Shown piece by piece: positions 7,882-54,880 of a stretch of DNA of 55,246 bases. Position 1 is the first letter of the stretch. The number at the start of each line of letters is the position of its first letter. The position numbers and the translations under genes are program-made. Source of the DNA: an uncultured Muribaculaceae bacterium (GTDB taxonomy: Bacteria > Bacillota_I > Bacilli_A > RF39 > UBA660); assembly GCA_964371745.1 (NCBI GenBank), contig CAYJNS010000001.1, positions 1 to 55,246 on the forward strand, read 5' to 3'. A model generated the notes under the pieces. The model ran no database searches and was not told the origin of the DNA. It worked only from the letters and a program-made list of their open reading frames with translations.

Positions 7882-7995
7882 ATGAAAGTTAGACCATCAG
7901 TTAAAAAAATTTGTAAAAAATGTAAAATTATAAGAAGAAAAGGTAGAGTTATGGTTATTTGTAATAACCCTAAACACAAACAAAGACAAGGATAG
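7882..7995 (+). CDS. rpmJ: 50S ribosomal protein L36 (37 aa, below ORF-track cutoff)
   Basis: Read by hand: [42 protein letters not shown] lies 6 nt upstream; the gene sits between infA and rpsM. Confidence 0.95.
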
Positions 7996-17859: not shown

Positions 17860-18468
<609 letters not shown>

Positions 18469-24640: not shown

Positions 24641-25138
24641 ATGAGAATATCTTTAAAAATTATTAAATATATTATGTTTGCGGTTATGCTGTTTATTTTA
24701 GCTATTGCTATATATTTATTTTATCAAAAACAAACAAATCCTCATGAAATGACTAAAGTATTTGGATATAGTTATGCAACTATATCAACTGATAGTATGG
24801 AGCCTACTATTATGATTGGTGACTTTTTAGTATATAAAAAAGAAAAAATATATTCCATAAATGATATAGTAGTATATATGCATGGTGATATTTCTATTAC
24901 TCATAGAATTGTGGGTATAGAAAATGATTTATATATAACAAAAGGCGATAATAACGATATAGTAGATGAAGTATCTTTAGATAATAGTGATATTATAGGA
25001 AAAGTAATTTATCAAAACAGTGATTTAAGTATATTACTTGTTAGAGCTATTTCCCTATGTGTATTTATATTTGGAATTGTAATTGCGCTTGATATATTAG
25101 TTTCTAAAAAAGTAACAAATGATAAAAAAAGTATCTAA
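24641..25138 (+). CDS. sipW: Signal peptidase I, archaeal/ER (SipW) type
   Basis: FGYSYATISTDSMEPTIMIGDF (Ser), ITHRIV (His), TKGDNNDIVD, GKV, plus N- and C-terminal TM helices. Colinear with B. subtilis SipW as I recall it. Confidence 0.8.
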   Translation: MRISLKIIKYIMFAVMLFILAIAIYLFYQKQTNPHEMTKVFGYSYATISTDSMEPTIMIGDFLVYKKEKIYSINDIVVYMHGDISITHRIVGIENDLYITKGDNNDIVDEVSLDNSDIIGKVIYQNSDLSILLVRAISLCVFIFGIVIALDILVSKKVTNDKKSI

Positions 25139-31019: not shown

Positions 31020-32615
31020 TTATTTTTTTTTCAAAAGCTTTCTAGCAAATTTACCACCAAATAAAGAATTTAATATATTTTTATTTAAAATAATATAAAT
31101 TCCAAGGGATATAACCGCAAATCCACCCAAGAAAACAAAATCAGCAATTCTGCCATATACATCTTTAGCTATAAAACTAAATATAATATTTATTGGAAGA
31201 ATAATTATTATATTTCTTATAATGCTTTTTAATATTTTTTTACTTTCATAGGATATTTTATCATCTTTTTTAAGTTTATACATTACATAAAGTGATGATG
31301 TAGTATATCCTATTAATGTAGCCGTTATAGCTCCATAATAAGGGTAACCAAAGTTTTCAAATAAAAGCATTAATGGTATATCTAAAGCAGCATTTAATCC
31401 AAGTCCTAACAGTATAGTTGTATATATTAGTTTGTTTTTATTCAAGTTTTGTAATATACAACCTAGTATTAAATACATACTATCAAAAAAGGCTAAGATA
31501 GCTAAATATCTAAATACTATGGGGCCAAAAAAGCTATTTCCATAAAATACATTCCACACATCATCTGCATGTATACTTAAAAATAATGATATTGGCATTA
31601 TAATATACAATAATACTTCGAAAGCTTTTCCATATTGTCTATTAACTTCTTCTTTTTCTTTTTTAGCAAATGCAGTAACCATAGATGGAATTAAACTTAT
31701 AACAAGTCCAGCACCAATTGAGGTAACAACTGTTATTAACTTAGCTCCCCATGTGGTAAATATACTGCTTATTTGTTCTATATCAGTAGCGGCATAACCT
31801 AAATGATCAAGTGTTCTAATTATTAAAATCATATCTACTGAGCTATATAAATAGAAAGCTAAATTAACAAGTATAAATGGAACTGCATAAGATATTAGTT
31901 TTTTTTGAATACTTTTCTTTTCTTTTTTAGAGATATTTATTTCTTCTTTATACTTTTCTATTTTTTTAGTTTTAAATAATAAATAGAAAAAACCTACTAA
32001 AGCTCCAGCTCCAGCTGCAATAACTGCAATACCAACAGCATATCTAAGTGGTAAATCAAATACATTCATTGCTAGATAACTACCAACTATAATAATAATT
32101 ATTCTAAATATTTGTTCTATAACTTGGCTAAATGATGATGCTGCAATATATTTATGACCTTGCAAATATCCTCTAAATATACTAAGTGTAGGTGCTATTA
32201 AAAGGGCAAAAGAAACACATCTGATAACAAATGTAACATCACTTATAGTGTTTCCGCCATTCATATCACCAAGAATAAGATTTGCAAAACTTTCAGCGCC
32301 AATAAAACATGTTAAAAATGTTATTATTGAAAATATAATAATAAATTTACCAGAAAATTTATACATATATTCTTTTTCTTTTAATTTATCTTTTGCTATA
32401 AATTCACTTGTTATTTTACTTACTGCAAAAGGAATTCCTGCTGCAGATATAATTAAAAATATATTATAAATATTATAAGCATAACCATATAAAGCTCCAC
32501 CTTCTTCTCCAATAATACTATAAAAAGGTACTACATATACTAATCCTAGTATTTTAGAAATAACAATAGCAAGTGTTGCAATAACTGCTCCATCTATAAG
32601 ACCACTTTTCTTCAA
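31020..32615 (-). CDS. MOP-superfamily flippase (MurJ/SpoVB/YtgP-like polysaccharide biosynthesis protein)
   Basis: About 14 TM segments; N-terminus KKSGLIDGAVIATLAIVISKILGLVYVVPF...GALYGYAYNIY. The track start at 32669 would place a TTGTTA-18-TATAAT promoter inside the ORF, so TTG 32615 is preferred. Confidence 0.75.
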   Translation of the reverse strand: MKKSGLIDGAVIATLAIVISKILGLVYVVPFYSIIGEEGGALYGYAYNIYNIFLIISAAGIPFAVSKITSEFIAKDKLKEKEYMYKFSGKFIIIFSIITFLTCFIGAESFANLILGDMNGGNTISDVTFVIRCVSFALLIAPTLSIFRGYLQGHKYIAASSFSQVIEQIFRIIIIIVGSYLAMNVFDLPLRYAVGIAVIAAGAGALVGFFYLLFKTKKIEKYKEEINISKKEKKSIQKKLISYAVPFILVNLAFYLYSSVDMILIIRTLDHLGYAATDIEQISSIFTTWGAKLITVVTSIGAGLVISLIPSMVTAFAKKEKEEVNRQYGKAFEVLLYIIMPISLFLSIHADDVWNVFYGNSFFGPIVFRYLAILAFFDSMYLILGCILQNLNKNKLIYTTILLGLGLNAALDIPLMLLFENFGYPYYGAITATLIGYTTSSLYVMYKLKKDDKISYESKKILKSIIRNIIIILPINIIFSFIAKDVYGRIADFVFLGGFAVISLGIYIILNKNILNSLFGGKFARKLLKKK

Positions 32616-32639
32616 AATAATCAACTCTCTTACTTTTAT

Positions 32640-32669
32640 ATTATATAATAAATAAGTGTCAAATAACAA
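32640..32669 (-). promoter_or_regulatory. Candidate promoter of the flippase gene (TTGTTA-18-TATAAT)
   Basis: Read on the minus strand. AGAGAG RBS-like element and TTG 32615 follow. Confidence 0.45.
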
Positions 32670-33244: not shown

Positions 33245-34840
33245 TTAGTTTATTGTATATGGATCATCCCAAGTTCCAGTGCCTGTGAATGCAGTTGTGT
33301 TTTTTAATGATAAAACTGGTCGTACTCCATAAGGAAAGTAATTAGAAGTGGCAGTTATTTGACCGCTTGTTTGTATAAAAAACGTAGTACTAGAACTTAC
33401 ATAAGAATAAGGGGAAATTGTCCAAAATGCATTTCCAGTATATAAATAATATTTTGTATTTGATGTATTAAATAAACCTCCAGCAAAAGCAACTTCATCT
33501 ACTGTTGTTAGTGTAACTGGATTAGTTAAAACGCCATTACCGTGTATTATATCATCAACAGTATATGAATCAATAATTCTTGAACACGTTAGCATTGGAG
33601 TTTTATTTTCTGTATTGAGTCTACCATATGCACCATAATATATATGTGATCCTGTTGTGCTATATACTGATTTATCGTTACAATATATTGTATCAGCAAC
33701 ATCATTTGATTTACCAGCGGCAATAATATTTGTGTTATACCAAGTATCAATGACATTTTTTATGGTGCTATTTATATTTTCTGCATCATATGTGTAACCT
33801 ACATATTTTGCATTGTTGTATATTGTATTAAATGCTGTTGAAGAGTGTATTTGCGTTCCAGCTCCTGCCATTACTGTTTTTGTTGTATTATTTGGTTCTG
33901 TCGTTCCACTATATATTAGTCTTACGCTTCCATCACCATTTATTCTGATAATTCTCCAATAAAATCCTGCCCAATAAACCCAGTTATTATCAACTGCTCC
34001 TCGAAAATAAAAACTTTTACCGTAATTATCAAAACTCATATACATGCCTTCATTTGTTGTTGCCACAGCATTAAAATTAGGTGTAGCTTTATTTATTATT
34101 TTATAAAACCCTTCATTATTATCTATTATTTGATCAGCTAATGAATTTTCAGCATATACGTAATTAATAGTTGATACTAATTTATCTTGACCTAATACTA
34201 ATGATGCATCTAATGTTTTCCCTTCATTTAATGTTTGATCATTTGGTAAATTTACAAATGTTATTTTAACTTTCCAATCTTGAGTAGTACCTGTTGAAGT
34301 ACTTGTTGTTGTTATATTATAATCTTCATATATTGGTATTATGCCATTAAAGTTAGTAATATCAAAACCAGTAATTTTAGAACCTGAATAAGAATCTGTT
34401 ATAGTGGTATATTCAAAACCTTTAAGGGCTGTTATTTCTTTTGCGCTAGGATTTGTTATAGTAAGCATTAACTCTGGGGTATCTTCATTTTGTGAATACT
34501 CAAATGTATTTGAATCTATTTGTAAATATACATTATAATCAAGTGTGGCACTACCTGTTTCGCTAGAGGCTACTAAGTGTGCTGTGGATGTTGTTTCATC
34601 GCTTAATGAACCAGTATTTTCGTTAAAATTATCATATATTGCATAAAGATTAATTGGATCACCTTCAGTAAAAGTAGCATTTTCAGATACTTCTGAAACT
34701 ATATCTAAATCAGTATTAGAAAAACCTCCAATACCCGCGAGGAAGAAGGCATAACCAACTCCAATTATAAGTGTAAGTGATAGTACTACACCAATTATAA
34801 TTATTAAAACTTTATGTTTAGATTCTTTTATTGTATTCAT
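33245..34840 (-). CDS. Family-A anchored protein, copy A2: N-module + DUF6273-like head
   Basis: TM helix ending GYAFF. N-module has TPELMLTITNP, ITGFDITNF, TQDWKVKITFVNLPNDQ. The head has NNWVYWAGFYWRIIRINGDGSVRLIYSG and GVRPVLSLK..GTGTWDDPYTI. Confidence 0.75.
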   Translation of the reverse strand: MNTIKESKHKVLIIIIGVVLSLTLIIGVGYAFFLAGIGGFSNTDLDIVSEVSENATFTEGDPINLYAIYDNFNENTGSLSDETTSTAHLVASSETGSATLDYNVYLQIDSNTFEYSQNEDTPELMLTITNPSAKEITALKGFEYTTITDSYSGSKITGFDITNFNGIIPIYEDYNITTTSTSTGTTQDWKVKITFVNLPNDQTLNEGKTLDASLVLGQDKLVSTINYVYAENSLADQIIDNNEGFYKIINKATPNFNAVATTNEGMYMSFDNYGKSFYFRGAVDNNWVYWAGFYWRIIRINGDGSVRLIYSGTTEPNNTTKTVMAGAGTQIHSSTAFNTIYNNAKYVGYTYDAENINSTIKNVIDTWYNTNIIAAGKSNDVADTIYCNDKSVYSTTGSHIYYGAYGRLNTENKTPMLTCSRIIDSYTVDDIIHGNGVLTNPVTLTTVDEVAFAGGLFNTSNTKYYLYTGNAFWTISPYSYVSSSTTFFIQTSGQITATSNYFPYGVRPVLSLKNTTAFTGTGTWDDPYTIN

Positions 34841-34854
34841 TTCTTACCTTCTTT

Positions 34855-36483
34855 CTAATTAGTGTGTACAAAATATGGATTATTCCATGTACCATTTCCA
34901 CTTGTAAGTGTATCACCTTTTAAATTTATTACTGGTCTTAATCCTTGTTCTACATAAGCTCCTCCGGAATACATTAAATAATGAGTCATCATATCAAGTG
35001 CTGAAGCACTCCAGTCTCCGTTCCCCACTATGTAATAAGTGTAATTTGATGAACTAGTTCCATTTCGAAGCATAGGAGTTATTGTGAAATAATTTAAATT
35101 TGTATGTAAATAAAATTTATTATTAGTTGTAGAAAGTTTACCTCCGGCCATATGCATTTCGTCATAACTTATCATTCCTATAGGATATGTTAGAGTTCCA
35201 GTTCCGTTAATTGTATCGTTTACTGTTAATTTACCAGTTTCATTTTCACAAGTTAATATTGGTTGGTTAGTGTACATTCTATCAACAGCAATTCTTTCTA
35301 AAACCCACCCTGAATTATTGTCGTTTACCGCAGGTCTATTATCTAAACAGAATATTGAATCTTGTAAATAGTTTTCATAATCTATTAATTTTGTATCCCA
35401 ACTCGCATAAGTATCAATTCCTTGATAAAAATTATCGTTAACTACGCTTGTAAAATCAGCTTTTGTACTAACATAAACTCCAAAATCAGTTGAAGCAGTT
35501 CCTATTTGTGTATCGTTTCCTGTTTTAACAACGGATTGAGATTCAGTTGGAGGTATAACTCCGCTATAAATCATTCTAACTGAGTTATCACCATTAACTC
35601 TTATTATTCTCCAGTAGTATCCAGCAAACTCTACCCAGTTATTATCAACCGCACCTCTAAAGTAATAACTTGTTCCGTAATCATCAGGTGCCGCAAACAT
35701 ACCTTCATTTGTAGTGGCTACTACAGCAAAATTAGGAGTGGCTTTTGCTACAATTTCATCTATTCCCCCATTATTAGTAAGAATAGTAGATGCTATTTGA
35801 GAAGTAGTTAAACCTAAGTCTAGTTTATCTTCTCCTAATATTAAGTTTGCTTCAATTGTTTTGCCTTGATTATCTATTTGATTTGCATCTAAATTAACAA
35901 ATGTTAATTTTATAGTCCACTCTTGAGTAGTACCAGTAGTAGTGCTTGTTGTAGATATATTATAATCTTCTTTTACTGCGATAAGTCCAGAAAAGTTAGT
36001 TATATCAAAACCTGTTATAGTTTCTCCAGTATAAGCATCAGTTACAGTTTTATGAGTATGTTCTCTTATCCATGTAACTTCATTACCATCTGGATCTATT
36101 ACTGTAAGAAGAAGTTCTGGTGTATCTTCGTTTTGTGTATATTCAAAAGTATTTGCAGTTATATCTACATAGACCTGATAATCAAGTGTAGCTGTTCCTG
36201 TATCAGTAGACGCTATTAAGTAAGCGCTTGAAATAGTTTCTTCAGTAATAGACCCTGCATATTCATGAAAATTTTCATTATCAGCATATAAAGAAATAGG
36301 GTCTCCACTTTTAAATGATGCTTTTTCAGCAACTTTAGAAACAACTTCTAAATCAGTGTTAGAAAAAGGTCCAATACCTTGAACAAAGAAAGCATAACCT
36401 ATGCCAAATAACAGAGCAACCGCTAAAAAGATACTTACAGTTATTATTAATATTTTATTTTTAGAATTTATTAAGTTTTTCAA
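34855..36483 (-). CDS. Family-A anchored protein, copy A3: N-module + DUF6273-like head
   Basis: Same architecture as A2 (YYWRIIRVNGDNSVRMIYSG; GLRPVINLK..GNGTWNNPY). TTG 36483 with AGGTGA 7 nt upstream is preferred over the track TTG 36531. Lies 14 nt upstream of A2. Confidence 0.75.
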   Translation of the reverse strand: MKNLINSKNKILIITVSIFLAVALLFGIGYAFFVQGIGPFSNTDLEVVSKVAEKASFKSGDPISLYADNENFHEYAGSITEETISSAYLIASTDTGTATLDYQVYVDITANTFEYTQNEDTPELLLTVIDPDGNEVTWIREHTHKTVTDAYTGETITGFDITNFSGLIAVKEDYNISTTSTTTGTTQEWTIKLTFVNLDANQIDNQGKTIEANLILGEDKLDLGLTTSQIASTILTNNGGIDEIVAKATPNFAVVATTNEGMFAAPDDYGTSYYFRGAVDNNWVEFAGYYWRIIRVNGDNSVRMIYSGVIPPTESQSVVKTGNDTQIGTASTDFGVYVSTKADFTSVVNDNFYQGIDTYASWDTKLIDYENYLQDSIFCLDNRPAVNDNNSGWVLERIAVDRMYTNQPILTCENETGKLTVNDTINGTGTLTYPIGMISYDEMHMAGGKLSTTNNKFYLHTNLNYFTITPMLRNGTSSSNYTYYIVGNGDWSASALDMMTHYLMYSGGAYVEQGLRPVINLKGDTLTSGNGTWNNPYFVHTN

Positions 36484-36538
36484 AATATTCTCACCTAGTA
36501 TAAGTTTATCAATTTTTACAACTTTTTTCAATAAATAA

Positions 36539-36567
36539 TTGATAAAAATGTTTTTTTTTGTTAAACT
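36539..36567 (+). promoter_or_regulatory. Candidate promoter of the A4-A7 operon (TTGATA-17-TAAACT) with a T9 tract in the spacer
   Basis: TTGATA at 36539-36544; a 17-nt spacer containing T9 (36551-36559) and TG at the extended -10 position; TAAACT at 36562-36567; AAGAGGA RBS before ATG 36589. Confidence 0.45.
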
Positions 36568-36588
36568 ATTTATAAGAGGATAAAAGTT

Positions 36589-38610
36589 ATGTTAGAAAAA
36601 TTTAAAGCAAATAAAAAAAGAAATATTCTTTTAATAATTATATTTTTGTTAATAGTTACATTATCAATTACTTTTGCTTACTATATTACAGGTGTTGGAG
36701 GTAGAGCAGAAACTGAAATAAAAGGTGATACCTTTTTAGCGGAGCAACTAGAGTTTACTTCGGGAACTCCAATAAGTATTGTTTCAAGCGATGATAACTT
36801 TAATCCAACAACTGGTTCTTTATCAGGTACTACAACAGCAACTGTTACACTACATCCTGGTGATGATACTGCATTAATGTCTAGAGGTTATGCTGCATAC
36901 TTTGAAATAACTAATAATGAATATGTTTATACAACAGTTGAAGAAACTCCGGAAATGGTTTTAACAATACTTGATCCAGAGGGTAATGAAGTAACAGATA
37001 TTCCTGGTCTTGAGCATGTAAGTGTATTTGATTTTAAAACAAATACTAATATAACAGGCTTTGATATAACGACTGTTACTGGTAAATATTTTGTTGGTTA
37101 TGATATGTTAGTATTAAATGATTTAGAAAATAGTGTATCTGAAACTTGGGATATAACTATAACATTTGTTAATTTAGATTCAGTACAAAACTCTAATGCA
37201 CAAAGGACCCTTAATTCTAAATTTACGTTTAATGAATATTATGACTTTACTGGTAATTATCAAACATTTACAGCTCCATATACTGGAACTTATAACATTG
37301 AACTTTGGGGAGCTCAAGGTGGAAAACACTTATTTAATGCATTAGATGAAGCTGGATCTGATAACTTTTTTGGAGCATACACTAGTGGCAATATAAACTT
37401 GTTGAAAGGAGATACAGTATACTTGTATGTCGGAGGTAAGGGCGCTGATGCTGTTGTTGGACAGATGGTTTCGGGCGGATATAATGGTGGAGGTCAAGGT
37501 AGTCATGACTTTGGTGATGATGAAGCTGCTGGAGGTGGTGGAGGAGCTACTGATATACGATATTTTACTAATTCTAATCTAGAGTTAGAAGATTTATATT
37601 GGAATTCAGAATTAGGTTTAAATAGCAGAATAATGGTCGCTGCTGGAGCGGGAGGAAGCTCAAGGATACCCGCTAACTTTACTTCCTACGGTGGAGGACT
37701 ATTAGGATATTCTTCAACAGCAAATAAAACTTCACAAACAAACGGATATGAATTTGGTTTGGGACAAAATGCTACATCTGGATGCCCTGGTTCTCAAGGA
37801 TGTGGAGGCGGAGGCGGAGGCTATTATGGTGGATTTTTGACATCTTTATCATCATATAATGGTGGAGGAAGTGGTTCATCTTTCATATCAGGTCATACAG
37901 GATCAGTTGCTATAACAAGTGAAAGTGATCAAAGTGCTAAATCTATACTGCAAGATACAGAAAACTTTCCAGTTAGATATATAGAAGTTGGAAGCAATGG
38001 TAATAGTACAAATGGTTATGGAGGATATAATCAAATAGTTGAATTGCAAGCCTATTTATCAGATGGTACAAACGTTGCATTAAATAAGTCTGTAGAGGGA
38101 AACGTGATAAGCGTTAGTGGAGATAGTAAACCTTTAGAAATGATTACAAATGGCGATATAACTTTAAGCAATTTTTCAAGACATGGGCAGATAATAAATG
38201 TAGATTTGGAGGACGAATATCATCTTGATGAAATTAAGTTGTGGAGATATTTTGATGGAAGGACATATTATGAAACATATGTAAAAGTATATAATGAAGA
38301 TAAAACTAAAAGTAAGTTTTTACATCATTATGAAATAGATGGAACATATGCTGAAACAAGTGATGGTAAAAGTATGAGTTTAGATTCAATTAATACAAAT
38401 TTATGTGTTACGGGAAATATGCATAATGCATGTTCAGTACATTATTCTAATAAAGTATTTACAGATACTAAAATGATAGATGGATCAGGTTATTTGTGGA
38501 CACATACTAAAGAAAGTCAAGAAAATATGAAAACACCGCTAGGATCATATTATGATATAGGTGAGGGTCACAGTGGTAATGGAGCTGCTAAAATAACACA
38601 TATTCCATAG
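36589..38610 (+). CDS. Family-A anchored protein, copy A4: N-module + glycine-rich (ALK-GRD-like) head with discoidin-like insert
   Basis: TM helix ending TFAYY and N-module motifs. Then YTGTYNIELWGAQGG, VYLYVGGKG, GGYNGGG, GGGGGATDIR, SRIMVAAGAGG, GGGGGGYYGG, GGGSGSSFISGHTG, an insert of about 150 aa, then CSVHYSNKVF...GHSGNGAAKITHI. Confidence 0.75.
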   Translation: MLEKFKANKKRNILLIIIFLLIVTLSITFAYYITGVGGRAETEIKGDTFLAEQLEFTSGTPISIVSSDDNFNPTTGSLSGTTTATVTLHPGDDTALMSRGYAAYFEITNNEYVYTTVEETPEMVLTILDPEGNEVTDIPGLEHVSVFDFKTNTNITGFDITTVTGKYFVGYDMLVLNDLENSVSETWDITITFVNLDSVQNSNAQRTLNSKFTFNEYYDFTGNYQTFTAPYTGTYNIELWGAQGGKHLFNALDEAGSDNFFGAYTSGNINLLKGDTVYLYVGGKGADAVVGQMVSGGYNGGGQGSHDFGDDEAAGGGGGATDIRYFTNSNLELEDLYWNSELGLNSRIMVAAGAGGSSRIPANFTSYGGGLLGYSSTANKTSQTNGYEFGLGQNATSGCPGSQGCGGGGGGYYGGFLTSLSSYNGGGSGSSFISGHTGSVAITSESDQSAKSILQDTENFPVRYIEVGSNGNSTNGYGGYNQIVELQAYLSDGTNVALNKSVEGNVISVSGDSKPLEMITNGDITLSNFSRHGQIINVDLEDEYHLDEIKLWRYFDGRTYYETYVKVYNEDKTKSKFLHHYEIDGTYAETSDGKSMSLDSINTNLCVTGNMHNACSVHYSNKVFTDTKMIDGSGYLWTHTKESQENMKTPLGSYYDIGEGHSGNGAAKITHIP

Positions 38611-38622
38611 GAAGGTTTTAAA

Positions 38623-40257
38623 ATGGATTTGAAAAAGAAAAATATTATAATTATAATTGCTTGCTCTTTAGCGTTAATTATCATAGGTGTTTCCTATGCC
38701 TTTTTTGCTATTAATGGTGGAAATAAAGCTGAAACTGATGTGGATGCAACAAGTGATTATAGTTCTAGTTTAAATTTTATTGAGGGAGAGCCTATAAGTT
38801 TATTAATGAATATAGATAATTTTAGTCAAGATCATGGTAGTTTAACAGATGAAACTAATCCTAAAGTTTTTTTAAGAAGTGAAGATGATGGAGTACTAAG
38901 AAGTATTGATTATCAAGTGTATTTTTATATTGAAAAAAACACATTTATTTATACAACTGATACAAAAGAACCAGAAATAATTTTAGAAATAACAAATCCA
39001 GAAGGAAATAAAGTGACAAGTTTAACTGGTTTAGAATATAAAACGGTTACCGATTATAAAACTAATACAGAAATTAGTGGCTTTGATATTACAACTGAAG
39101 AAGGTTATATTAATATATCTGAAAGTTATAATATATCATCAACATCAGCATCAACAGGTACAACACAAGATTGGATTTTTAAGGTAACGTTAATAAATTT
39201 AAATAGTGTTCAAACTGCTAATGAAGGAAGAGAATTTAAATCTAATATAATGATTGGTGAAATAGATTATGATTTTTGTGAAAATGAACATGAATTTATT
39301 TTTGAATATACTGGTGCAGAACAGACTTTAACTGTTCCGGAAACTTGTATGTACAAAGTAGAATTATGGGGAGCACAAGGTGGGAGCGATGGTATAAATA
39401 TTGGCGGTTATGGAGCATATGTTCAAGGAAATATTGTTTTAACTGAAACAGAAAATATATATATTCAAGTAGGACAACAAGGTAAATTAGCTACTGTTGA
39501 TAATGATGCAAACTCTGGAGGCTATAATGGTGGTGGAATTAGTGGTTTATCAGATAGTACACCTCCAAATAATGGAGGAGGAGGAGGTGCTACAGATTTA
39601 AGAATTAGTTCTGGAGCATGGAATAATGCTTTAAGTTTAAGAAGCCGTATAATGGTTGCTGGAGCGGGATCTGGAATTTCAAATTGGTATATTAGAATAC
39701 CAAATGCATCGCCTGCTGGTGGACTTATAGGGTATGCTGGACAATTTATGAGATCTAGTGGAAATTATACATATACAAATGCTATTGGCGGAACCCAAAT
39801 TGCTGGTGGTAATAGAGCTATTGGTGGTTCATGGTCTATTGCGTCTACAAATGGTGGTTTTGGATACGGAGGAAGAGCGCAATCAAGTTATGGTAGTGGT
39901 GGTGGATCCGGCTATTATGGTGGTGGAGGTGGTGAAGCAAACAGTGCTGTTGTTGGTTCTGGAGCTGGCGGTTCATCATACATATCAGGTCATACGGGTT
40001 CTGTAGCAATTACTAGTGAATCTAGCACTACTCCAAAATCAGGATGTACAACTGGAACAAGTAATAATGATTGTTCAGTGCATTATTCAAATAAGGTGTT
40101 TGCTGACACAATTATGATAGATGGAAATGGTTATTCTTGGTCAAATGTAAAAGAAAATCAAGTACAAATGCCTAATCCAGATGGTACACTGAATCCTATA
40201 GGTGTAGGTCATAGTGGAAATGGATATGCTAAAATAACCTCTATAAATTTAAAATAA
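38623..40257 (+). CDS. Family-A anchored protein, copy A5: N-module + glycine-rich head (no insert)
   Basis: Same motif series (YKVELWGAQGG, IYIQVGQQGK, GGGGGATDLR, SRIMVAGAGSG, GGGSGYYGGGGG, GAGGSSYISGHTG, GHSGNGYAKITSI). 12-nt gap and RBS after A4. Confidence 0.75.
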   Translation: MDLKKKNIIIIIACSLALIIIGVSYAFFAINGGNKAETDVDATSDYSSSLNFIEGEPISLLMNIDNFSQDHGSLTDETNPKVFLRSEDDGVLRSIDYQVYFYIEKNTFIYTTDTKEPEIILEITNPEGNKVTSLTGLEYKTVTDYKTNTEISGFDITTEEGYINISESYNISSTSASTGTTQDWIFKVTLINLNSVQTANEGREFKSNIMIGEIDYDFCENEHEFIFEYTGAEQTLTVPETCMYKVELWGAQGGSDGINIGGYGAYVQGNIVLTETENIYIQVGQQGKLATVDNDANSGGYNGGGISGLSDSTPPNNGGGGGATDLRISSGAWNNALSLRSRIMVAGAGSGISNWYIRIPNASPAGGLIGYAGQFMRSSGNYTYTNAIGGTQIAGGNRAIGGSWSIASTNGGFGYGGRAQSSYGSGGGSGYYGGGGGEANSAVVGSGAGGSSYISGHTGSVAITSESSTTPKSGCTTGTSNNDCSVHYSNKVFADTIMIDGNGYSWSNVKENQVQMPNPDGTLNPIGVGHSGNGYAKITSINLK

Positions 40258-40272
40258 AGAAAGGTAAGTATA

Positions 40273-42300
40273 ATGGATAAAGTAAAAAAGAAAAATATAA
40301 TTATTATAGTAATTGCATCACTAATTTTAATATCTAGTGGTATTACTTTTGCTTACCTTATAACTGGTGTAGGCGGCAATGCAGAAACTGACGTAGATGT
40401 TGCAAGTGGTGAAAATGAAAGGTTATCTTTTATACCAGGTGAGCCGCTAAATATAATATCTAATGTAGATAATTTTAGTTTTGAAGATGGTTCTTTAAGT
40501 GATACTACAACTTCAAAAGTAAAATTAGTTAGTGAAGTAGAAGGAGAAACTACTACTCATACATATAATGTATATTTTTCTATAGATGCTAATGAGTTTA
40601 TATATACAACTCCAGAAAAGACACCTGAAATAATATTAAATATAATAGATCCAACAGGTAATGAAATTAAAGATATAACTAATTTTAATTATGTAACAAC
40701 TACTGATAGAATTACTGGAGAAACTATAAAAGGTTTTGATGTAACAGAATTTAATAGTATAATAGATATAGCTCAAGATTATGTAATAAGTACTGATTCA
40801 GTTTTAGAAGGAGTTACTCATGAATGGATTTTTAAATTAACTTATGTAAATTTAGCTACTTCTCAGCTTGATAATGAAGGTAAAGTATTTAATGGTAATG
40901 TTATAATGCAAAATGAAGATAAGAATGTATTTGAGTTTGATTATACAGGTAGTGAACAAGTATTTACTGCCCTTAATACAGGAACTTATAAAGTAGAGTT
41001 ATGGGGAGCTCAGGGCGGAAATAATGATAGTAGATTAGGTGGTAGAGGAGCTTATACAAGTGGGTTAATAGAACTTAATCAAGGAGATACTTTTTTTGTA
41101 CAAGTAGGTGGACAAGGAAGTGTAGCTAATTCAACATATGCAGAAAATTCAATTGGTTATAATGGTGGTGGAGCCGGAGTTCCTTATACTGGACAAATTA
41201 ATGGTACTGGAGGAGGAGGAGCTACTGATATTAGGTTAACAAGCGGAGAATGGAATAATTTTGAATCTTTAAGCAGCAGAATAATGGTAGCTGGAGCAGG
41301 AGCGGGTCTTGCTAACTGGATGAATCCAGTATCTAATGCGGCTCCAGGTGGTGGTTTGATTGGTAACCCAGGAAAACAGTATCAATCAGGTTCTTTATAT
41401 TATAGAAATTCAACAGGTGGGACACAAGTTTCTGGTGGAGTTGAAGGTTATGGAGCTTACGGAGGATATCCAGGTGTATTTGGCATAGGTGGAAACCCAC
41501 AGTCTGGTCATGGATCAGGCGGAGGAGGAGGCTATTATGGAGGAGGAGGAGGAGGCTATAACGGTGGAGTTGTAGGCTCTGGTGCAGGTGGATCATCATT
41601 CATATCAGGGCATACAGGATCAGTTGCTATAGCTAGTGAAATTGATCAAAGTCCAATTGAATTATATCCTTTAGATTTTAATATAAGATTTATAGAAGTT
41701 AGAAGTAATGGTAATAGCGTTGATGGAACTAATAACTATGATCATACTGTAGAAATTCAAGCTTTATTAGAAAATGGAGATAATGTTGCATTAAACAAAA
41801 CAATTATTGGAGAAAATACAATGAGTCAATACCCATTAACAAATATTACAGATGGTATTACTGATACGTTTAATTATGGGGTTCATGGAAATGTTATTAC
41901 GGTTGATTTAGAACAAGAATATCAATTAAGTGAAGTGAAATTATGGAGATATTATAATGATTCAAGAACTTATTATGAAACCTATGTAAAAGTATATAAT
42001 GAAGATAAAACTAAAAGTGTATATTTACATAATTATGAAACAGATGGAACATATGCAGAAACCTCAAGTGGAAAGACAATGTCTTTTAATAGTTGTAATA
42101 CTGGAACTATTTATAATGAATGCTCAGTACATTACTCAAACAAAGTATTTACTGATACTAAAATGATAGATGGAGCAGGTTATTTATGGACACATGTAAA
42201 AGGTGATCAGGAAGAGATGCCAAACCCTACTGGAGAATTAAATGCAATAGGTGTAGGTCATAGTGGAAATGGATATGCTAAGATAACATATATACCTTAG
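40273..42300 (+). CDS. Family-A anchored protein, copy A6: N-module + glycine-rich head with discoidin-like insert
   Basis: Same architecture as A4. The insert has IRFIEVRSNGNS...VEIQALLENG...ITDG...VDLEQEYQLSEVKLWRYY. 15-nt gap after A5. Confidence 0.75.
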   Translation: MDKVKKKNIIIIVIASLILISSGITFAYLITGVGGNAETDVDVASGENERLSFIPGEPLNIISNVDNFSFEDGSLSDTTTSKVKLVSEVEGETTTHTYNVYFSIDANEFIYTTPEKTPEIILNIIDPTGNEIKDITNFNYVTTTDRITGETIKGFDVTEFNSIIDIAQDYVISTDSVLEGVTHEWIFKLTYVNLATSQLDNEGKVFNGNVIMQNEDKNVFEFDYTGSEQVFTALNTGTYKVELWGAQGGNNDSRLGGRGAYTSGLIELNQGDTFFVQVGGQGSVANSTYAENSIGYNGGGAGVPYTGQINGTGGGGATDIRLTSGEWNNFESLSSRIMVAGAGAGLANWMNPVSNAAPGGGLIGNPGKQYQSGSLYYRNSTGGTQVSGGVEGYGAYGGYPGVFGIGGNPQSGHGSGGGGGYYGGGGGGYNGGVVGSGAGGSSFISGHTGSVAIASEIDQSPIELYPLDFNIRFIEVRSNGNSVDGTNNYDHTVEIQALLENGDNVALNKTIIGENTMSQYPLTNITDGITDTFNYGVHGNVITVDLEQEYQLSEVKLWRYYNDSRTYYETYVKVYNEDKTKSVYLHNYETDGTYAETSSGKTMSFNSCNTGTIYNECSVHYSNKVFTDTKMIDGAGYLWTHVKGDQEEMPNPTGELNAIGVGHSGNGYAKITYIP

Positions 42301-42313
42301 GAAAGGAATTATT

Positions 42314-43834
42314 ATGGATAAAGTAAAAAAGAAAAATATAATTATTATAGTAGTAGCATCTTTAATAGTAGTAGCATCCGCTGTTACTTATGCTTTTGTA
42401 TACTCTAGAGTTGGTGGAACTGCTGAAACTGATGTGGACGTAGCAAGTGGAGAAGAAGAAAGATTAACATTTATTGAAGGTGAACCATTATATATTGAAT
42501 CATCTATAGAAAATTTTAGTTCAGAGCATGGAAGTTTAAGTGCAACTACTAAACCTAAAGTTAAATATGTAACCGATGTAGAAGGTGTTGAGACAACAAA
42601 TAACTATGATGTTTATTTAGTAATTGAAGAAAATGGATATATATATACTACTGCTGAACAAAAACCAGAATTAGTACTAACAATTATAGATCCAACTGGA
42701 AATCGGGTAACTAATATAGATGGATTAAATCCAGTTACAACTATAGATTATAAGACAAATACAGAGATTAGTGGTTTTGATATTACCACATTCAATGATG
42801 CGATAAATATTACACAACAATATCCTATATCAACAAATTCAGTTAATACAGGTGAAGTACATGAATGGGAATTTATTATAAATTATATAAATTTAGATTC
42901 TGTGCAATCAGAAAATGAAGGTAAAATTTTAAATGCAAAAATTGTTATGGGAGATTTTAATTGTAATAACGATTATGATATAAGTCAAAGATCTAGCGAT
43001 AGTGTTTATGTAAAAAATTATATATATACAGGAAGTACACAGGAATTAAACATTACAACTCCAGGCCAGTATTTATTACAAACATGGGGTGCAGAAGGTG
43101 GTTATGCTACTTCTGAGACATTTGGTGGAGATGGAGGATATTCGGAAGGCGTTTTAAATATAACTAGTGATACTAATTTATACATAAATGTAGGGAATAA
43201 AGGGTCTAAATTAACTGGTGGTTATAATGGTGGAGGTAGCGCTATAGATGATACTTATGATTCATATGGCGGTGGTGGTGCCTCTGATATTAGAATAACT
43301 ACAAATAGCCTATATTCTAGAGTGATAGTAGCTGGAGGTGGTGGAGGCGCAAATGGAACAAGGTCTAACACCTCAACTAGAGCAGGTGGTTTTGGTGGAG
43401 GATTAGTTGGTGGAACCGCAACTCAATATAGTAGTTATACACCAGCTGGTGGCGGCACTCAAACTGCAGGCGGAGCTCGAGGATATTTAAATAATAGTTA
43501 TTATGGCATCGCTGGAACATTTGGTAATGGAGCAAATGGAACAAGTAATTATTCTACATCAGGCGGAGGCGGAGGTGGAGGCTGGTATGGCGGAGGGAGT
43601 GGTCATCCAGGTTCTACAACGACTTCAATTGGCGGAGGAGGAGGTTCTGGATATGTTTATACTGAAGAAACAGCTATCTCTTACCCTAGTGGAGTTTTAC
43701 TTGATTCAACACACTATTTAACTCAAGCGAATACTTTTGCTGGAAATACAAATTTTGTATCGCCTACTGGAACTATTGAAAATGGACATAATGGTACAGG
43801 ATATGCTCGAGTTACAGCTATGTGTTTTTATTAA
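42314..43834 (+). CDS. Family-A anchored protein, copy A7: N-module + divergent glycine-rich head
   Basis: YLLQTWGAEGG, LYINVGNKG, GGYNGGG, GGGGASDIR, SRVIVAGGGGGA, GGGGGGWYGGG, GGGGGSGYVY, and GHNGTGYARVT. 13-nt gap after A6. Confidence 0.75.
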   Translation: MDKVKKKNIIIIVVASLIVVASAVTYAFVYSRVGGTAETDVDVASGEEERLTFIEGEPLYIESSIENFSSEHGSLSATTKPKVKYVTDVEGVETTNNYDVYLVIEENGYIYTTAEQKPELVLTIIDPTGNRVTNIDGLNPVTTIDYKTNTEISGFDITTFNDAINITQQYPISTNSVNTGEVHEWEFIINYINLDSVQSENEGKILNAKIVMGDFNCNNDYDISQRSSDSVYVKNYIYTGSTQELNITTPGQYLLQTWGAEGGYATSETFGGDGGYSEGVLNITSDTNLYINVGNKGSKLTGGYNGGGSAIDDTYDSYGGGGASDIRITTNSLYSRVIVAGGGGGANGTRSNTSTRAGGFGGGLVGGTATQYSSYTPAGGGTQTAGGARGYLNNSYYGIAGTFGNGANGTSNYSTSGGGGGGGWYGGGSGHPGSTTTSIGGGGGSGYVYTEETAISYPSGVLLDSTHYLTQANTFAGNTNFVSPTGTIENGHNGTGYARVTAMCFY

Positions 43835-43841
43835 AAATTAA

Positions 43842-43867
43842 AACCTAGAAAGTCTAGGTTCTTTTTT
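43842..43867. terminator. Bidirectional terminator between A7 and gerQ
   Basis: aacctaga-aag-tctaggtt stem, T6 downstream and an A-run upstream; sits between convergent genes. Confidence 0.7.
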
Positions 43868-44228
43868 ATTCTCTTGGCCTATCGTAAAAGATAGGTTCCA
43901 TAAATTCTATATAATCTAAATATAACATTTTTATTAAATACCAACTACCAGTCATTGAATCTTTTATGATTAAATGATCAATACTTGCTTCTTCAATAGT
44001 TCCAACGTATTCTTTATCCCTCCATTTTTCACTATCTGGAAAAGATACATAAGCTTTAACTGTTTTTCCTCTATTATCTCTAAGTATATTTTCTATATAA
44101 CTAACTTGTACATCTGGAAGTGGTATTTTAGGTGGAGGAGGAAAGTTAGTTTGATTTACTGTTTGATTATTAGCCTCTGGATAAGGATTATTTGGAAATG
44201 TTGGATTTTGATAATAATTTCCGTTCAT
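43866..44228 (-). CDS. gerQ: Spore coat protein GerQ-like
   Basis: N/Q/P-rich N-terminus, then SYIENILRDNRGKTVKAYVSF....W.....G.IEEASIDHLIIKD..TG.WYL....YLDYIEF, colinear with B. subtilis GerQ (YwdL) as I recall it. AAAGAGGTG RBS. Confidence 0.7.
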   Translation of the reverse strand: MNGNYYQNPTFPNNPYPEANNQTVNQTNFPPPPKIPLPDVQVSYIENILRDNRGKTVKAYVSFPDSEKWRDKEYVGTIEEASIDHLIIKDSMTGSWYLIKMLYLDYIEFMEPIFYDRPRE

Positions 44229-44540: not shown

Positions 44541-44633
44541 TTCAATTTGAAACTTGCTATTAGCAATATTGCTTTTTATATCTTTATAGAAGTATAATTT
44601 ATATAAATAAATATACTTTTTTTGGAGGTAGTA

Positions 44634-45938
44634 ATGAAAGAAAAAGATAAAGTTTTAATAGCTAAACTAATACTAAAAATAACAATTATTATGACCATTG
44701 TAAGTGTATTTATAAAACTATTAGGTTTTGATTTATTTGAAGCAGATTATAGTAATAAAATTCTTTTATGGTTTTCTAATTTAGTGGATAATAATTTTGT
44801 AAGTGGACTTTTTAGTATATTATTAATATTTATTCAATTATATATTATATATAGAATAACTACTAAAAATTCATGTATAAAAACCCATTTGCTCGTTACA
44901 AGTATCTCTACTTTGATTATAGTTTTAACACAAATATATATTTTTGATTATATGTTGACATCCAAATCTAATTTAATTTCGATTCTATATGCCGTTATAT
45001 CTCTAATTAATGTTATTTTGTGTCCTTTTTTAATTGATTATAAAGTTGAATATAAAATAAAATATAAAAGAAAAAATAACGTTGTAAAATTTATGCAAAA
45101 ATTTTGGGTTAGAATTAAGAAACCATTAATCATGTATATGGTAGTGTTATCTTATCAAATTATTGTATTATTTATTAGAAATTTACCATATAATAGTAAA
45201 TATGAAACAATATATAATTTTCTATTAAATTTTGACTACATAATTATTTTATTAATTACTTATTATATTTACTTGAAAAGGAAAGATAATTTAAAAATAA
45301 ATTCTGTTTTTAATTTTTCTTTAGCGCAATTTTTAAATGAAAAACCTGATAAAAAAGATATAAAATATTTTGTAATACAGTTAAAAAATGGGTATGCAGA
45401 TTTTAAAAAACAAAATAAAACTGATAAAATTGTCGTTTTATTATACTTATTATTTTTTATAATACAAGAGTGTTTAACTTTGGGATTGTTAATATACATA
45501 GCTAGCATTAATGATTATATAATTGAATGTTTATTTATATTAACATCTTTCATTATATCCAAGAGCGTTTTTGGAGCGTTTCATTTTAAATCATTTATAT
45601 TATGCTTTTTTGTTTCTAATTTGTCATTTTTTATTTTAAGTAGATTAACTATGAATGTAAATACAACATTTATAATACCTATTTTTTGTGGAATACTATT
45701 AGCTTATATTTCAAGTCGTTTTATTAATAAAAGTGACAGTTCATTATACCGCGGAGTACCTGTGGAAAAATTAGAAAAAATATGTGATGAAAAAAAATTG
45801 AATAAAATGGAGAAAGATATATTAATTGATTATTATTCAAATAGATATAATATTGATAAACTTGCAATTAAATATCATTATTCTGATCGAAGCATACAAA
45901 GAATTAAAACAAAAGCATTAAATAAAATTCAACTATGA
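44634..45938 (+). CDS. Polytopic membrane protein (about 10 TM) with C-terminal sigma-70 region-4-like HTH
   Basis: ATG 44634 after GGAGG. Hydrophobic helices run through about aa 370. The tail LNKMEKDILIDYYSNRYNIDKLAIKYHYSDRSIQRIKTKALNKI fits the region-4 pattern L..rE..i....y......eiA......S.r...r....Al.K. Confidence 0.6.
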   Translation: MKEKDKVLIAKLILKITIIMTIVSVFIKLLGFDLFEADYSNKILLWFSNLVDNNFVSGLFSILLIFIQLYIIYRITTKNSCIKTHLLVTSISTLIIVLTQIYIFDYMLTSKSNLISILYAVISLINVILCPFLIDYKVEYKIKYKRKNNVVKFMQKFWVRIKKPLIMYMVVLSYQIIVLFIRNLPYNSKYETIYNFLLNFDYIIILLITYYIYLKRKDNLKINSVFNFSLAQFLNEKPDKKDIKYFVIQLKNGYADFKKQNKTDKIVVLLYLLFFIIQECLTLGLLIYIASINDYIIECLFILTSFIISKSVFGAFHFKSFILCFFVSNLSFFILSRLTMNVNTTFIIPIFCGILLAYISSRFINKSDSSLYRGVPVEKLEKICDEKKLNKMEKDILIDYYSNRYNIDKLAIKYHYSDRSIQRIKTKALNKIQL

Positions 45939-49590: not shown

Positions 49591-51252
49591 ATGAATGTGA
49601 ACAAAATAGTTTTTACATCAATATTTTTAATTTTTATAGCTGTACTCAGTATTTCTATAGGTTATTCAGCACTTAATTCAACATTAACTATTAGTGGGGA
49701 TGCCACTGTAATAAATAAACAAAATATTAAAATAAATAATATAATATATAAAGATGTTGTCTCAAATGCAAAAGAAATTTATAATTCTAGTTTTTCTGAC
49801 AATGTAGGTAATATTGGAATAAATCTGCCTAATATAGATTCATCAATAACATATACAATAACAATTTTAAATGAAACAGATAGTAATTATTATCTGGGGA
49901 ATGTTGAAGGAATTACCAATACTAATCCTGATATAAGTTATGAAATATTAAATAAAGAAAATATTGTACTAAGTCCTAATACTAGTACAGAATTTGATAT
50001 TAAGTTTACTTATGATGGAGCTTTACCCGATAATAAAGATTTATCTATAAGTTTAAAGTTTAATTTCCATTTAAATTATCGTGAAGAAATATTAAATGGA
50101 GCTTATCCAATTTTAAATAGTGGATTAATACCTGTTACTATAGGTAATGATGGTACTGTAATGGTTGCTGATACAGAAGTTGAGTGGTATAGCTATGAAA
50201 GTAAAGTTTGGGCTAACGCAGTACTTGTAAAAGACCCTTCTGTTACTTATGAAGTTGGAACTATAATACCTATGAATGATATAAAGCAAATGTATGTATG
50301 GATCCCAAGGTATTCTTATGATGCATCTTCAATAGAAAATGATAAAAATGCAATTGATATAACTTTTGTAAATAATGAAACTGTTGCTCACCCTGCATTT
50401 ACATTTGGAACTGATGAACTAAATGGTTTTTGGGTTGGTAAATTTGAAACTGGTTATGAATTTGGTGAAGATATGACAAGTCCAACGTTAGATTACTCTA
50501 TAAAACCTAATGTATATTCTATTGGACCAATAGATATTTACTCGATGTATCAAGGTGTAATTAAAACTAATAATAAGTTTGGATTAGATTCTAGTAGTGA
50601 CTTGCATGTTATTAAAAATACTGAATGGGGAGCAGTTACTTATATTACTCACTCTATATATGGAATATGTACCAGTGATACTAATTGTCCAACAATGACT
50701 AATAATTACTATGCAAATAATTTAAATGATATTATAACAGGGTGTGGTGGAACAACACAACCCACTATTACATCTGGAATTAATGATATTAGTATTTGTC
50801 CTGCTGATTATAGATGGAATACTGTTAATGGATATAAAGCAAGTACTACAAAAAATATAAGTGGTATATACGATTTATCTGCAGGTAAATACGAATATGT
50901 AATGACATTTATGGAAAATCCTTCAGGAGGAGTTTATACTTCGAATAGTAAATTCACGCAAAGTAATCTTCCTGATGAAAAATATTATGATTTATATCCA
51001 GAAAATACTAATAATAAAAATTCTAATGGAGTTATTGGAGATGCTATTCTTGAAATCAAAGACCCAACGGCGACTTATTCATGGAATTATGATTATGCAA
51101 TATTTCACACAACAACATCACCGTTTATTGTAAGAAGTGCTCGTGTAGGAAGTTGGCATTATGCGGGAATGTTTGCTTATTATGGTGTTACAGGTACTTC
51201 CTCTGGTGGTGTTGGAGCTTTTGCTACTCGAAATGTTATAGCTCCAATATAA
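49591..51252 (+). CDS. Family-B anchored protein, copy B1: TasA/camelysin-like N-module + large head
   Basis: TM helix ending IGYSALNSTLTISGDATV. The roughly 160-aa N-module is shared with 53096. The head has WANAVLV, MYVWIPRYSY, HPAFTFG...GFWVGKFE, WGAVTYITHS, and ISGIYDLSAGKYEYV. Confidence 0.65.
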   Translation: MNVNKIVFTSIFLIFIAVLSISIGYSALNSTLTISGDATVINKQNIKINNIIYKDVVSNAKEIYNSSFSDNVGNIGINLPNIDSSITYTITILNETDSNYYLGNVEGITNTNPDISYEILNKENIVLSPNTSTEFDIKFTYDGALPDNKDLSISLKFNFHLNYREEILNGAYPILNSGLIPVTIGNDGTVMVADTEVEWYSYESKVWANAVLVKDPSVTYEVGTIIPMNDIKQMYVWIPRYSYDASSIENDKNAIDITFVNNETVAHPAFTFGTDELNGFWVGKFETGYEFGEDMTSPTLDYSIKPNVYSIGPIDIYSMYQGVIKTNNKFGLDSSSDLHVIKNTEWGAVTYITHSIYGICTSDTNCPTMTNNYYANNLNDIITGCGGTTQPTITSGINDISICPADYRWNTVNGYKASTTKNISGIYDLSAGKYEYVMTFMENPSGGVYTSNSKFTQSNLPDEKYYDLYPENTNNKNSNGVIGDAILEIKDPTATYSWNYDYAIFHTTTSPFIVRSARVGSWHYAGMFAYYGVTGTSSGGVGAFATRNVIAPI

Positions 51253-54199: not shown

Positions 54200-54880
54200 A
54201 TGAAATTTATATTAAATAAAGACCCTTTGTCTTATGAGGTAAATGCGATTGTGATGTACTTAAAAAATTATAAGTTTTTTGAAAAATATAAATATAATGT
54301 ATCTTATCCTGAATATGAAGAATTTAAGGAGTTATTAAATAAAGCAAGAAATGGAGATATTGAGGATTCTGATTACGAAGAAGTTCAAAGTCAATTTAAA
54401 AAAATTTTAGATATTGATAAGTATAATGCGTTATATGAAAAATGTAAAAATGTTATTATAGAAAACAATAAAATTTTAGAAAAAACCAAAAGCTTATTTG
54501 AGCAACTTAGTTTAAATTTTGATTTTAAATTATTTGATAATTATTTAGTTAATATTACTAAATATGGTCCAGGTGGTTCTTATGATTCAAGTGATGGTAG
54601 TATATTAATAAAATATGGAAAGAATGGTATTAAATTTTCAACATTAATTCACGAATTGTTTCATATAGGAATAGAAGAATCTATAATTCAAAAGTATAAT
54701 ATAAATCATGGTACAAAAGAATATATTGTTGATACTTTTATGTTAACATATTTTAATACATATTTTGATAATTATGTATATCAAGCATTGGATGATAATA
54801 TTGATGAATATGTTAAAGAAAATATTAAAGTTGGTTTTGATTTTAATAAATTAGATTATGTAATGTCACTAAAGATATAA
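54200..54880 (+). CDS. Hypothetical protein with HExxH motif (possible zinc metallopeptidase)
   Basis: The only motif is TLIHELFHIGIEE. No signal peptide. Confidence 0.4.
   Translation: MKFILNKDPLSYEVNAIVMYLKNYKFFEKYKYNVSYPEYEEFKELLNKARNGDIEDSDYEEVQSQFKKILDIDKYNALYEKCKNVIIENNKILEKTKSLFEQLSLNFDFKLFDNYLVNITKYGPGGSYDSSDGSILIKYGKNGIKFSTLIHELFHIGIEESIIQKYNINHGTKEYIVDTFMLTYFNTYFDNYVYQALDDNIDEYVKENIKVGFDFNKLDYVMSLKI

Follow-up and report, generated by a model that had tools for sequence, protein, structure and literature searches.

Seven paralogous genes with a common N-terminal module

The DNA analysed here, a stretch of 55,246 nucleotides (contig CAYJNS010000001.1, positions 1 to 55,246; hereafter the window), carries seven paralogous genes, A1 to A7, whose products share an N-terminal module (N-module) that constitutes a new, large and lineage-restricted domain family. 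According to the open reading frame (ORF) listing, six of them lie back-to-back at 33245-43834 and the seventh at 16351-17850. A profile built from the seven N-termini and run against the six-frame translation of the window matched exactly seven ORFs (E 3e-81 to 5e-100), N-terminally in all seven, confirming the six-gene array and the separate copy that a sequence-only reading of this DNA had described. In the full-length alignment of A1-A7, the first 215 or so residues are colinear, with 28 invariant columns and a mean column identity of 51% across the N-modules, after which two unrelated kinds of C-terminus begin. The colinear motifs listed by the sequence-only reading are all visible in this alignment; its helix-end pattern [ST][YF]A[YF] holds in five copies, whereas A2 and A3 read G-Y-A-F. 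The genes and the parts of their products are as follows.

16351-17850, plus strand: A1, 499 aa; N-module at aa 1 to about 226, then a weakly DUF6273-like head; hidden Markov model (HMM) match E 3e-81
33245-34840, minus strand: A2, 531 aa; N-module and weakly DUF6273-like head; lies distally in the minus arm, 14 nt after A3, with the ribosome-binding site (RBS) GAAGG
34855-36483, minus strand: A3, 542 aa from TTG 36483; N-module and a head 41% identical to the A2 head
36589-38610, plus strand: A4, 673 aa; N-module at aa 1 to about 216
37282-38019, plus strand: glycine-rich domain (GRD) head of A4, aa 232-477
38155-38343, plus strand: weak discoidin-like insert of A4, aa 523-585
38623-40257, plus strand: A5, 544 aa; N-module and GRD head at aa 242-540 (39346-40242)
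40273-42300, plus strand: A6, 675 aa; signal or anchor at aa 1-27 (40273-40353)
40354-40413, plus strand: disordered conserved extension of A6, aa 28-47
40414-40914, plus strand: jelly-roll-like sandwich of A6, aa about 48-214
40969-41658, plus strand: GRD of A6, aa 233-462
41845-42048, plus strand: weak discoidin-like insert of A6, aa 525-592
42314-43834, plus strand: A7, 506 aa; N-module and GRD head at aa 249-502 (43058-43819)

A domain family of uncultured gut Bacilli

No Pfam or NCBIfam family was found for the N-module, either in the seven proteins or in 23 diverse members at E≤10, and its profile matched none of the PDB sequences. The module is thus as unrecognised as had been claimed from the letters, with Foldseek returning only generic jelly-roll or beta-sandwich matches. 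An exhaustive profile search of clusters at 50% identity placed at least 1145 cluster representatives in the family (1145 at E≤1e-3, of which 512 at E≤1e-30), and the match spans approximately residues 1 to 220 in all 150 of the matches listed, in proteins of 209-1254 aa. A word-indexed homolog search returned nothing with the seven-sequence profile and five distant head-less relatives with one beta-domain as query.

One genome per species was scanned with a five-sequence alignment as query, which gave 79 loci, all of them in gut metagenome-assembled genomes (MAGs) that were titled uncultured Bacilli, 'Tenericutes', Clostridium sp. CAG:609 or Candidatus Onthocola, or labelled Muribaculaceae, a label that we take to be mistaken for this set of loci. 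The samples were of human, rabbit, mouse and chicken origin. The family is uncharacterised and occurs only in one clade of uncultured gut Bacilli, which are low in GC and form spores, in keeping with the lineage-specific stalk domain that had been suggested. It is absent from IMG/VR and from the GenBank phages (INPHARED), on which ground a phage origin of the N-module was rejected. The 84 loci that were fetched, four of them the same place, hold 122 N-module copies, which are N-terminal wherever the gene start falls inside the locus, and each MAG contains about 5-11 copies or more, these numbers being lower bounds.

Arrays of up to eight N-module genes occur elsewhere, supporting the earlier idea of expansion by tandem duplication. 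The largest array seen, in a rabbit-gut Bacilli MAG (locus L067, 452-16998), comprises eight tandem genes, seven encoding about 695 aa and one encoding 607 aa, with 0-22 nt between them. Among 90 relatives, the heads were assigned to DUF6273 in 10 (E≤1e-3, best 1.6e-8), to DUF285/BspA-type leucine-rich repeats (LRR) in seven and to fn3 in four, with GRD, DUF4874 and Ig-like heads in others and the majority unannotated. The proposed fusion of the N-module to variable heads is therefore borne out for DUF6273, DUF285/LRR, fn3, Ig and GRD, but it is not constant, because head-less forms of 209-236 aa occur as well, in tandem, three in locus L001 and two in locus L005.

Fold of the N-module

Two AlphaFold models were built, the first of the full module from a seven-sequence alignment (pLDDT 82.9) and the second of the 'mature' A6 module (aa 28-222, 12 sequences; pLDDT 86.5). 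The module is modelled as a sandwich of about 170 residues and ten strands that belongs to the jelly-roll class, with pLDDT above 90 throughout the sandwich in the 'mature' model. A helix is predicted at aa 6-31, and residues 28-47 fall below pLDDT 50 in both models. Foldseek searches of the models against the PDB (twice) and BFVD gave only generic matches (TM-score ≤0.39), including viral capsids, lectins, carbohydrate-binding modules and seipin; the best E-value belonged to Bd1399, an elongated sandwich that is itself of unknown function.

The approximately 20 residues that follow the motif at the end of the helix show a strand-like, period-two pattern of conservation in 155 family sequences. 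Positions 37, 39, 41, 43 and 45 of this extension carry 1.95-2.43 bits versus 0.96-2.06 at the intervening positions, with the consensus A-x-T-[DN]-[VI]-[ND]-[VI]-T-[TS].

Interchangeable heads

The heads of A4-A7 are members of PF12810 (ALK_LTK_GRD; E 4e-39 to 1e-45, 135.6-156.8 bits, cutoff 24.5), and the GRD head has a weak direct match to the LTK chain 7nx0_C. By tblastn, GRD head matches were also located beside or within tail-fibre genes of Clostridioides difficile phages. The discoidin-like inserts of A4 and A6 remain below cutoff (E 0.016-0.032). In A1 and A2, DUF6273 (PF19789) was matched in part and below threshold (18.5 bits, E 0.0019; gathering score 23.5), and no match was found in the A3 head. 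Two kinds of C-terminus after the shared module had been predicted, glycine-rich in A4-A7 and DUF6273-like in A1-A3; the two kinds and the glycine-rich assignment stand, while the DUF6273 assignment is weak in A1 and A2 and was not recovered in A3. DUF6273 is reported to have a C-type-lectin-like fold and to be targeted frequently by diversity-generating retroelements (DGRs) in gut-phage receptor-binding proteins (PMC10743442, PMC11792537). The head of A1-A3 is probably a C-type-lectin-like, DUF6273-type domain, and the heads as a whole are of kinds used in ligand recognition, from which ligand binding by A1-A7 might be expected.

The A4 head is 54-59% identical to the A5 and A6 heads, whereas its N-module is only 36-38% identical to theirs and approximately as distant from them as from those of A1-A3. 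N-module and head have different histories, consistent with domain shuffling or with unequal rates of change.

Export signal and putative processing

As the sequence-only reading had noted, A1-A7 all start with a K-rich region followed by a hydrophobic helix, here taken as about 20 residues. None of them has a further hydrophobic segment. Because of the basic N-terminus, the single helix and the lack of any other hydrophobic segment, export that leaves the bulk of the protein outside the cell is well supported by the sequences. Within the first 50 residues, conservation is highest at the end of the helix, which in 155 family sequences reads G (60%)-x-[TS] (93%)-[YF] (90%)-A (94%)-[YF] (99%)-F (81%), and this type of motif was found in 132 of 150 representatives at a median residue of 28. 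The motif obeys the -3/-1 rule of signal peptidase sites. For comparison, the TasA and CalY signals end in GGGT[WF]A[AY]F. The Ala lies at median residue 28 in the N-module family and at 27 in 112 TasA-family proteins, and the last K/R precedes the Ala by 20 residues (interquartile range 19-21) in the former and by 21 in the latter. Cleavage by SipW makes mature TasA begin at residue 28 (PMC9674648). The two signals are placed in register by hhalign, without significance, and three head-less relatives scored 13.7-16.1 bits against TIGR04088 (cutoff 19), over profile positions 1-22 of 34.

The window also encodes a candidate processing enzyme.

24641-25138, plus strand: signal peptidase I of the endoplasmic reticulum (ER)/archaeal type (SipW-like), 165 aa

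This protein matches TIGR02228 with 60.9 bits (cutoff 51.85) and the bacterial-type TIGR02227 with 29 bits (cutoff 47). It contains S52 (SMEPT), H88 (THRIV) and D103 (GDNN) as well as N- and C-terminal transmembrane (TM) segments, and its gene is flanked by an ATP-grasp-like ORF and rplI.

We somewhat favour processing at T-[YF]-A over a permanent anchor, since the motif is the best-conserved N-terminal feature, obeys the -3/-1 rule and stands at the position of the proven SipW site, and since a peptidase of the corresponding type is present. Given a cleavage-like motif and an ER-type peptidase, the proteins may undergo processing and not stay anchored; among the options raised earlier, this speaks for 'fibre subunits carrying variable tips'. 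Several observations weigh against processing and against the export-and-display reading built on it. TIGR04088 gave no score on the seven window proteins; Gly or Pro occurs within five residues before the Ala in 96 of 152 members versus 112 of 112 TasA proteins; the AlphaFold helix continues through the motif; and weak matches of the FliL/Wzz signal-anchor type are about as frequent as those to TIGR04088. The peptidase gene is about 8 kb from both A1 and A2 rather than adjacent, phmmer detected no peptidase homolog in 1.2 Mb of sequence flanking relatives elsewhere, and the enzyme may be the organism's housekeeping peptidase. A linked peptidase or partner gene was accordingly rejected, as the other loci contained no peptidase homolog and clustering of neighbours over 82 loci gave no conserved one, none recurring in more than 14. 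No LPXTG or wall-binding repeat that could hold a cleaved protein was found in the sequences, and binding is attributed to the heads by family resemblance only, with the DUF6273 matches of A1 and A2 being partial.

Several of these points bear on the alternative that A1-A7 are surface proteins anchored N-terminally in the membrane, in which the helix would be a permanent signal anchor, the motif an interfacial aromatic belt and the sandwich a rigid stalk presenting the heads at the membrane or wall surface. It corresponds to what the sequence-only reading put first. The hydrophobic stretch of about 20 residues is long enough for a TM segment and is modelled as a single helix through the motif; between four and eight of the 23 members have weak FliL, Wzz or SAG1386/EF1546 surface-associated-protein matches; and the family has no linked dedicated peptidase or assembly gene, and A1-A7 no other anchoring device. 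On the other side, the near-invariant small-aromatic-small triplet [TS]-[YF]-A, with its constant spacing from the basic region, has the look of a signal peptidase site and matches that of TasA in sequence and position, and the extension is strand-periodic yet unstructured in the monomer, which a passive tether would not need. Moreover, the organism makes peptidoglycan, and a single sandwich seems too short to carry a head through a Gram-positive-type wall. We regard this alternative as a serious but less probable one.

Proteins with the same helix-end motif but no N-module were encountered in two other loci. L001 encodes, at 5925-7895, a 656-aa GRD protein with the helix end ...LIVTYAYY, and L001 (8780-9895) and L005 (133-1278) encode proteins of 371 and 381 aa, respectively, with the helix end ...SYASFFTVKTNT..TTG.L.VSY, the L005 copy having a CarboxypepD_reg match. 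These non-N-module proteins lie directly upstream of the tandem head-less N-modules of their loci. Their occurrence suggests that this lineage uses the motif generally as an export signal. The 371-aa protein of L001, which looks like TasA, was rejected as a relative because it has no homology to TasA or to the N-module.

A proposed surface-display system

Taken together, A1-A7 could be Sec-exported modular extracellular proteins that form a duplicated and diverged repertoire of binding specificities, an explanation we hold to be somewhat better than an even bet. The modular display or adhesin repertoire proposed by the sequence-only reading is largely supported, every testable element of it having held up. 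The K-rich region and the helix would form a signal peptide of the SipW/TasA type, with cleavage most likely behind the near-invariant Ala and by the ER-type peptidase encoded on the same contig. The extension of about 20 residues, flexible in the monomer and strand-periodic in conservation, would then be exposed at the N-terminus of the mature protein, followed by the jelly-roll-class sandwich of about 170 residues as the common base and hallmark of the family. Each base would carry an interchangeable ligand-binding head, namely the TNF-like/polyglycine-II 'glycine-rich domain' in A4-A7, with a discoidin-like insert in A4 and A6, and the lectin-like type discussed above in A1-A3. The base may keep the protein at the cell by means of a retained helix or, somewhat more likely in view of the cleavage-type motif, by docking or assembly of the base that is mediated by a strand.

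One form of strand-mediated assembly would apply if the family were a new, highly divergent branch of the TasA superfamily. After cleavage, the extension would serve as a donor strand inserted into the next jelly roll, producing decorated fibres, or fibres of head-less proteins of about 210 aa onto which head-bearing subunits dock, with the heads along the fibre or at its tip. The TasA donor strand comprises residues 28-38, directly after the cleavage site; that of AbpX was reported to be left disordered in the AlphaFold prediction, and archaeal Tafi loci were reported to contain tip adhesins. The family presents a TasA-like signal together with an ER-type peptidase, a jelly-roll-class fold, a conserved amphipathic extension that AlphaFold likewise leaves disordered, and head-less modules in tandem arrays (L001 and L005). 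TasA fibre 8aur_A appears in both Foldseek lists (TMq 0.33-0.37, prob 0.77-0.87) and CanA 9hdi in the first (prob 0.80), where they are ranked among capsid jelly rolls and lectins of similar score; with E 0.015-0.03 and a root-mean-square deviation of 11-12 Å, the TasA match is no better than those to viral capsids and lectins. Homology in sequence to TasA was rejected. PF12389 (Peptidase_M73), which is present in all TasA relatives used as controls, was matched by none of the seven proteins at E≤0.1 and by none of 23 N-modules at E≤10, and hhalign of the N-module against TasA gave Prob 9% in the last hairpin only with 23 versus 24 sequences, and Prob 6% in the signal peptide only with 155 versus 111 sequences. 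Most members also have heads of 300-1000 aa, whereas known donor-strand fibre subunits are of 100-350 aa; the profile search found no head-less copy in the window, and no TapA-like or anchor partner is conserved nearby. We regard a place in the TasA superfamily as a serious but less probable reading, and likewise the decorated-fibre case, in which binding specificity would be set by the paralogs expressed and most subunits, unlike those of all members described so far, would carry swappable lectin-like heads.

A different view, that A1-A7 are spore-surface or sporulation-specific proteins (coat or appendage decorations) rather than adhesins of vegetative cells, arises from the surroundings of the array. 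Its direct neighbours are a gerQ-like spore-coat gene (43866-44228) and a Polysacc_synt/MurJ-family (possibly SpoVB-like) flippase gene (31020-32669), and a GRD protein gene in L001 adjoins cotJB and an Mn-catalase gene (cotJC-type); TasA itself was first described as spore-coat-associated. These adjacencies are not conserved, as no neighbour occurs in more than 14 of 82 loci, the core, oriC-proximal window has many unrelated neighbours, and no promoter for a sporulation sigma factor was identified. Coat proteins that have been characterised mostly arise in the cytoplasm of the mother cell and have no signal peptide, which further argues against this view, and we consider it very improbable.

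Operon signals and genomic setting

The genes of each arm are closely spaced, with 14 nt between A3 and A2 and 12, 15 and 13 nt between A4-A5, A5-A6 and A6-A7, respectively, and every start of A1-A7 is preceded by a purine-rich RBS-like hexamer, in agreement with the earlier description of 12-15 nt gaps and one RBS per gene. The signals around the two arms are the following.

36484-36588, strand not assigned: divergent control region, 105 bp
36539-36567, plus strand: promoter-like TTGATA-17-TAAACT with TG extension; consensus match only
43842-43860, plus strand: terminator-like hairpin and T-run after A7, shared with the convergent gerQ-like gene and a terminator on both strands

The length of 105 bp, as proposed earlier, applies to a start of A3 at TTG 36483; the A3 ORF is open up to TTG 36531, its longest reading, and with this start the gap would be 57 bp. 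The start at 36483 was accepted because it follows the RBS GGTGAG and yields an N-terminus (MKNLINSKNK...) that lines up with those of A1 and A2. Promoter-like sites were also found by consensus on the minus strand of the spacer. The hexamers in the spacer scan are no more frequent than in shuffled sequence, and the operon structure is therefore an inference: the array is probably expressed as two divergent operons. No terminator hairpin was found after A2.

Nothing in the array points to an active switching mechanism. Phase variation by inversion, a DGR and recent gene conversion were rejected, as the repeats of the array share only 60-89% DNA identity and the promoter is not flanked by inverted repeats. 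Homopolymer tracts can mediate phase variation, and a T9 tract (36551-36559) lies inside the 17-nt spacer of the best promoter-like site before A4; it is not distinctive, because runs of at least nine occur five times in this AT-rich window.

The window is core chromosome near oriC, containing a ribosomal-protein operon, secY, rpoA, parAB, dnaB and ssb, and the organism, with a GC content of 27%, encodes a spore gene (GerQ) and peptidoglycan genes (Mur ligase, M23/LysM, MurJ-like). The GC content of the array is 0.31-0.335, and that of the plus arm (36001-44000) is 0.32-0.335 versus 0.20-0.28 in the flanks, which is approximately that of the ribosomal-protein operon. Horizontal transfer of the array is thus not indicated, and Gly codons of the heads probably explain the excess rather than a foreign origin.

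Some further features of the window deserve mention. Between A1 and rpsF, a purA ORF (17923-18336, plus strand, 137 aa) covers profile positions 1-133 of 416 and appears to be a truncated remnant. Just downstream of the array, past the gerQ-like gene, lies a gene (44622-45938, plus strand) for a polytopic membrane protein of 438 aa that is AgrB-like at aa 263-395 and whose C-terminal 60 or so residues look by eye like a helix-turn-helix or sigma-70 region 4; its product could be a regulator. A second modular family of the same design as A1-A7 is represented by 49591-51252 and 53096-54163 (both plus strand), with a basic N-terminus, a hydrophobic helix ending IGYSALN..LTISG.A.V, its own module of about 165 aa (39% identity between the two members, E 2e-37) and unrelated C-termini. 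No Pfam or NCBIfam match and no detectable homology to the N-module of A1-A7 or to TasA was found for it, and the ORFs between and after its members (51288-53042 and 54200-54880) are unannotated.

Significance

A family of at least 1145 clusters, present in approximately 5-11 or more copies per genome, has so far been entirely unannotated, and we know of nothing established about the surface biology of these uncultured gut Bacilli. It is plausibly a main toolset for attachment to mucus, food particles and other microbes. A new Pfam entry could be defined on the N-module, and the signals described here would extend the SipW/TasA type beyond matrix fibres. If the donor-strand reading were true, the family would provide the first example of a TasA-like system whose subunits are modular and bear adhesins, and also an attractive scaffold for display engineering.

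Comparison with known systems

Several classes of surface protein were considered and set aside for A1-A7. Lipoproteins were rejected, since a lipobox-like IIAC (Cys14) occurs in A5 only and the column is not conserved. Sortase-dependent adhesins were rejected, since the C-termini (...DPFRLMSW, ...DPYTIN, ...PYFVHTN, ...AKITHIP, ...KITSINLK, ...KITYIP and ...VTAMCFY) contain no LPXTG. Type IV pilins and pseudopilins were rejected, since no copy has G/F-x-x-x-E at the start of the helix, the conserved motif being at its end; PF07790 was matched by one of 23 members (E 0.73).

Host-associated Bacillota and Mollicutes have surface arrays of the DUF285/BspA-LRR kind, which resemble the present one in being lineage-specific tandem paralogs of reduced, AT-rich, host-associated genomes, and some N-module relatives even have DUF285 heads; unlike those arrays, A1-A7 are not lipoproteins and show no evidence of phase-variation machinery. 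Phage receptor-binding proteins with GRD-like or DUF6273 tips share the Pfam families of the heads but differ in that the N-module is absent from phage collections, the genes are chromosomal core genes, an export signal takes the place of a tail-attachment domain and no DGR or template repeat was seen. The tip adhesins of donor-strand pili (FimH-type) likewise combine a constant base or assembly domain with a variable lectin-like binding domain; in our case, however, the base is N-terminal and the head C-terminal, the host is of Gram-positive type without chaperone or usher, and most members bear heads, in contrast to a single head-bearing subunit per fibre.

TasA, CalY and camelysin, with the wider superfamily (AbpA, AbpX, CanA and archaeal threads), share with the N-module family the length of the signal peptide and its small-aromatic-Ala-aromatic-Phe end, an ER-type (SipW-like) peptidase in the genome, a core of the jelly-roll class, a conserved extension after the putative cleavage site that is unstructured in monomer predictions, and head-less paralogs of about 180 aa in mature form. 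They differ in that the N-module has no detectable homology to them and a non-significant structural match, that most members carry large C-terminal heads, that no sipW/tapA-type operon is linked, and that polymerisation of the N-module is only proposed. In its way of working the array probably resembles other repertoires of modular adhesins, and it may also resemble polymers of the TasA type.

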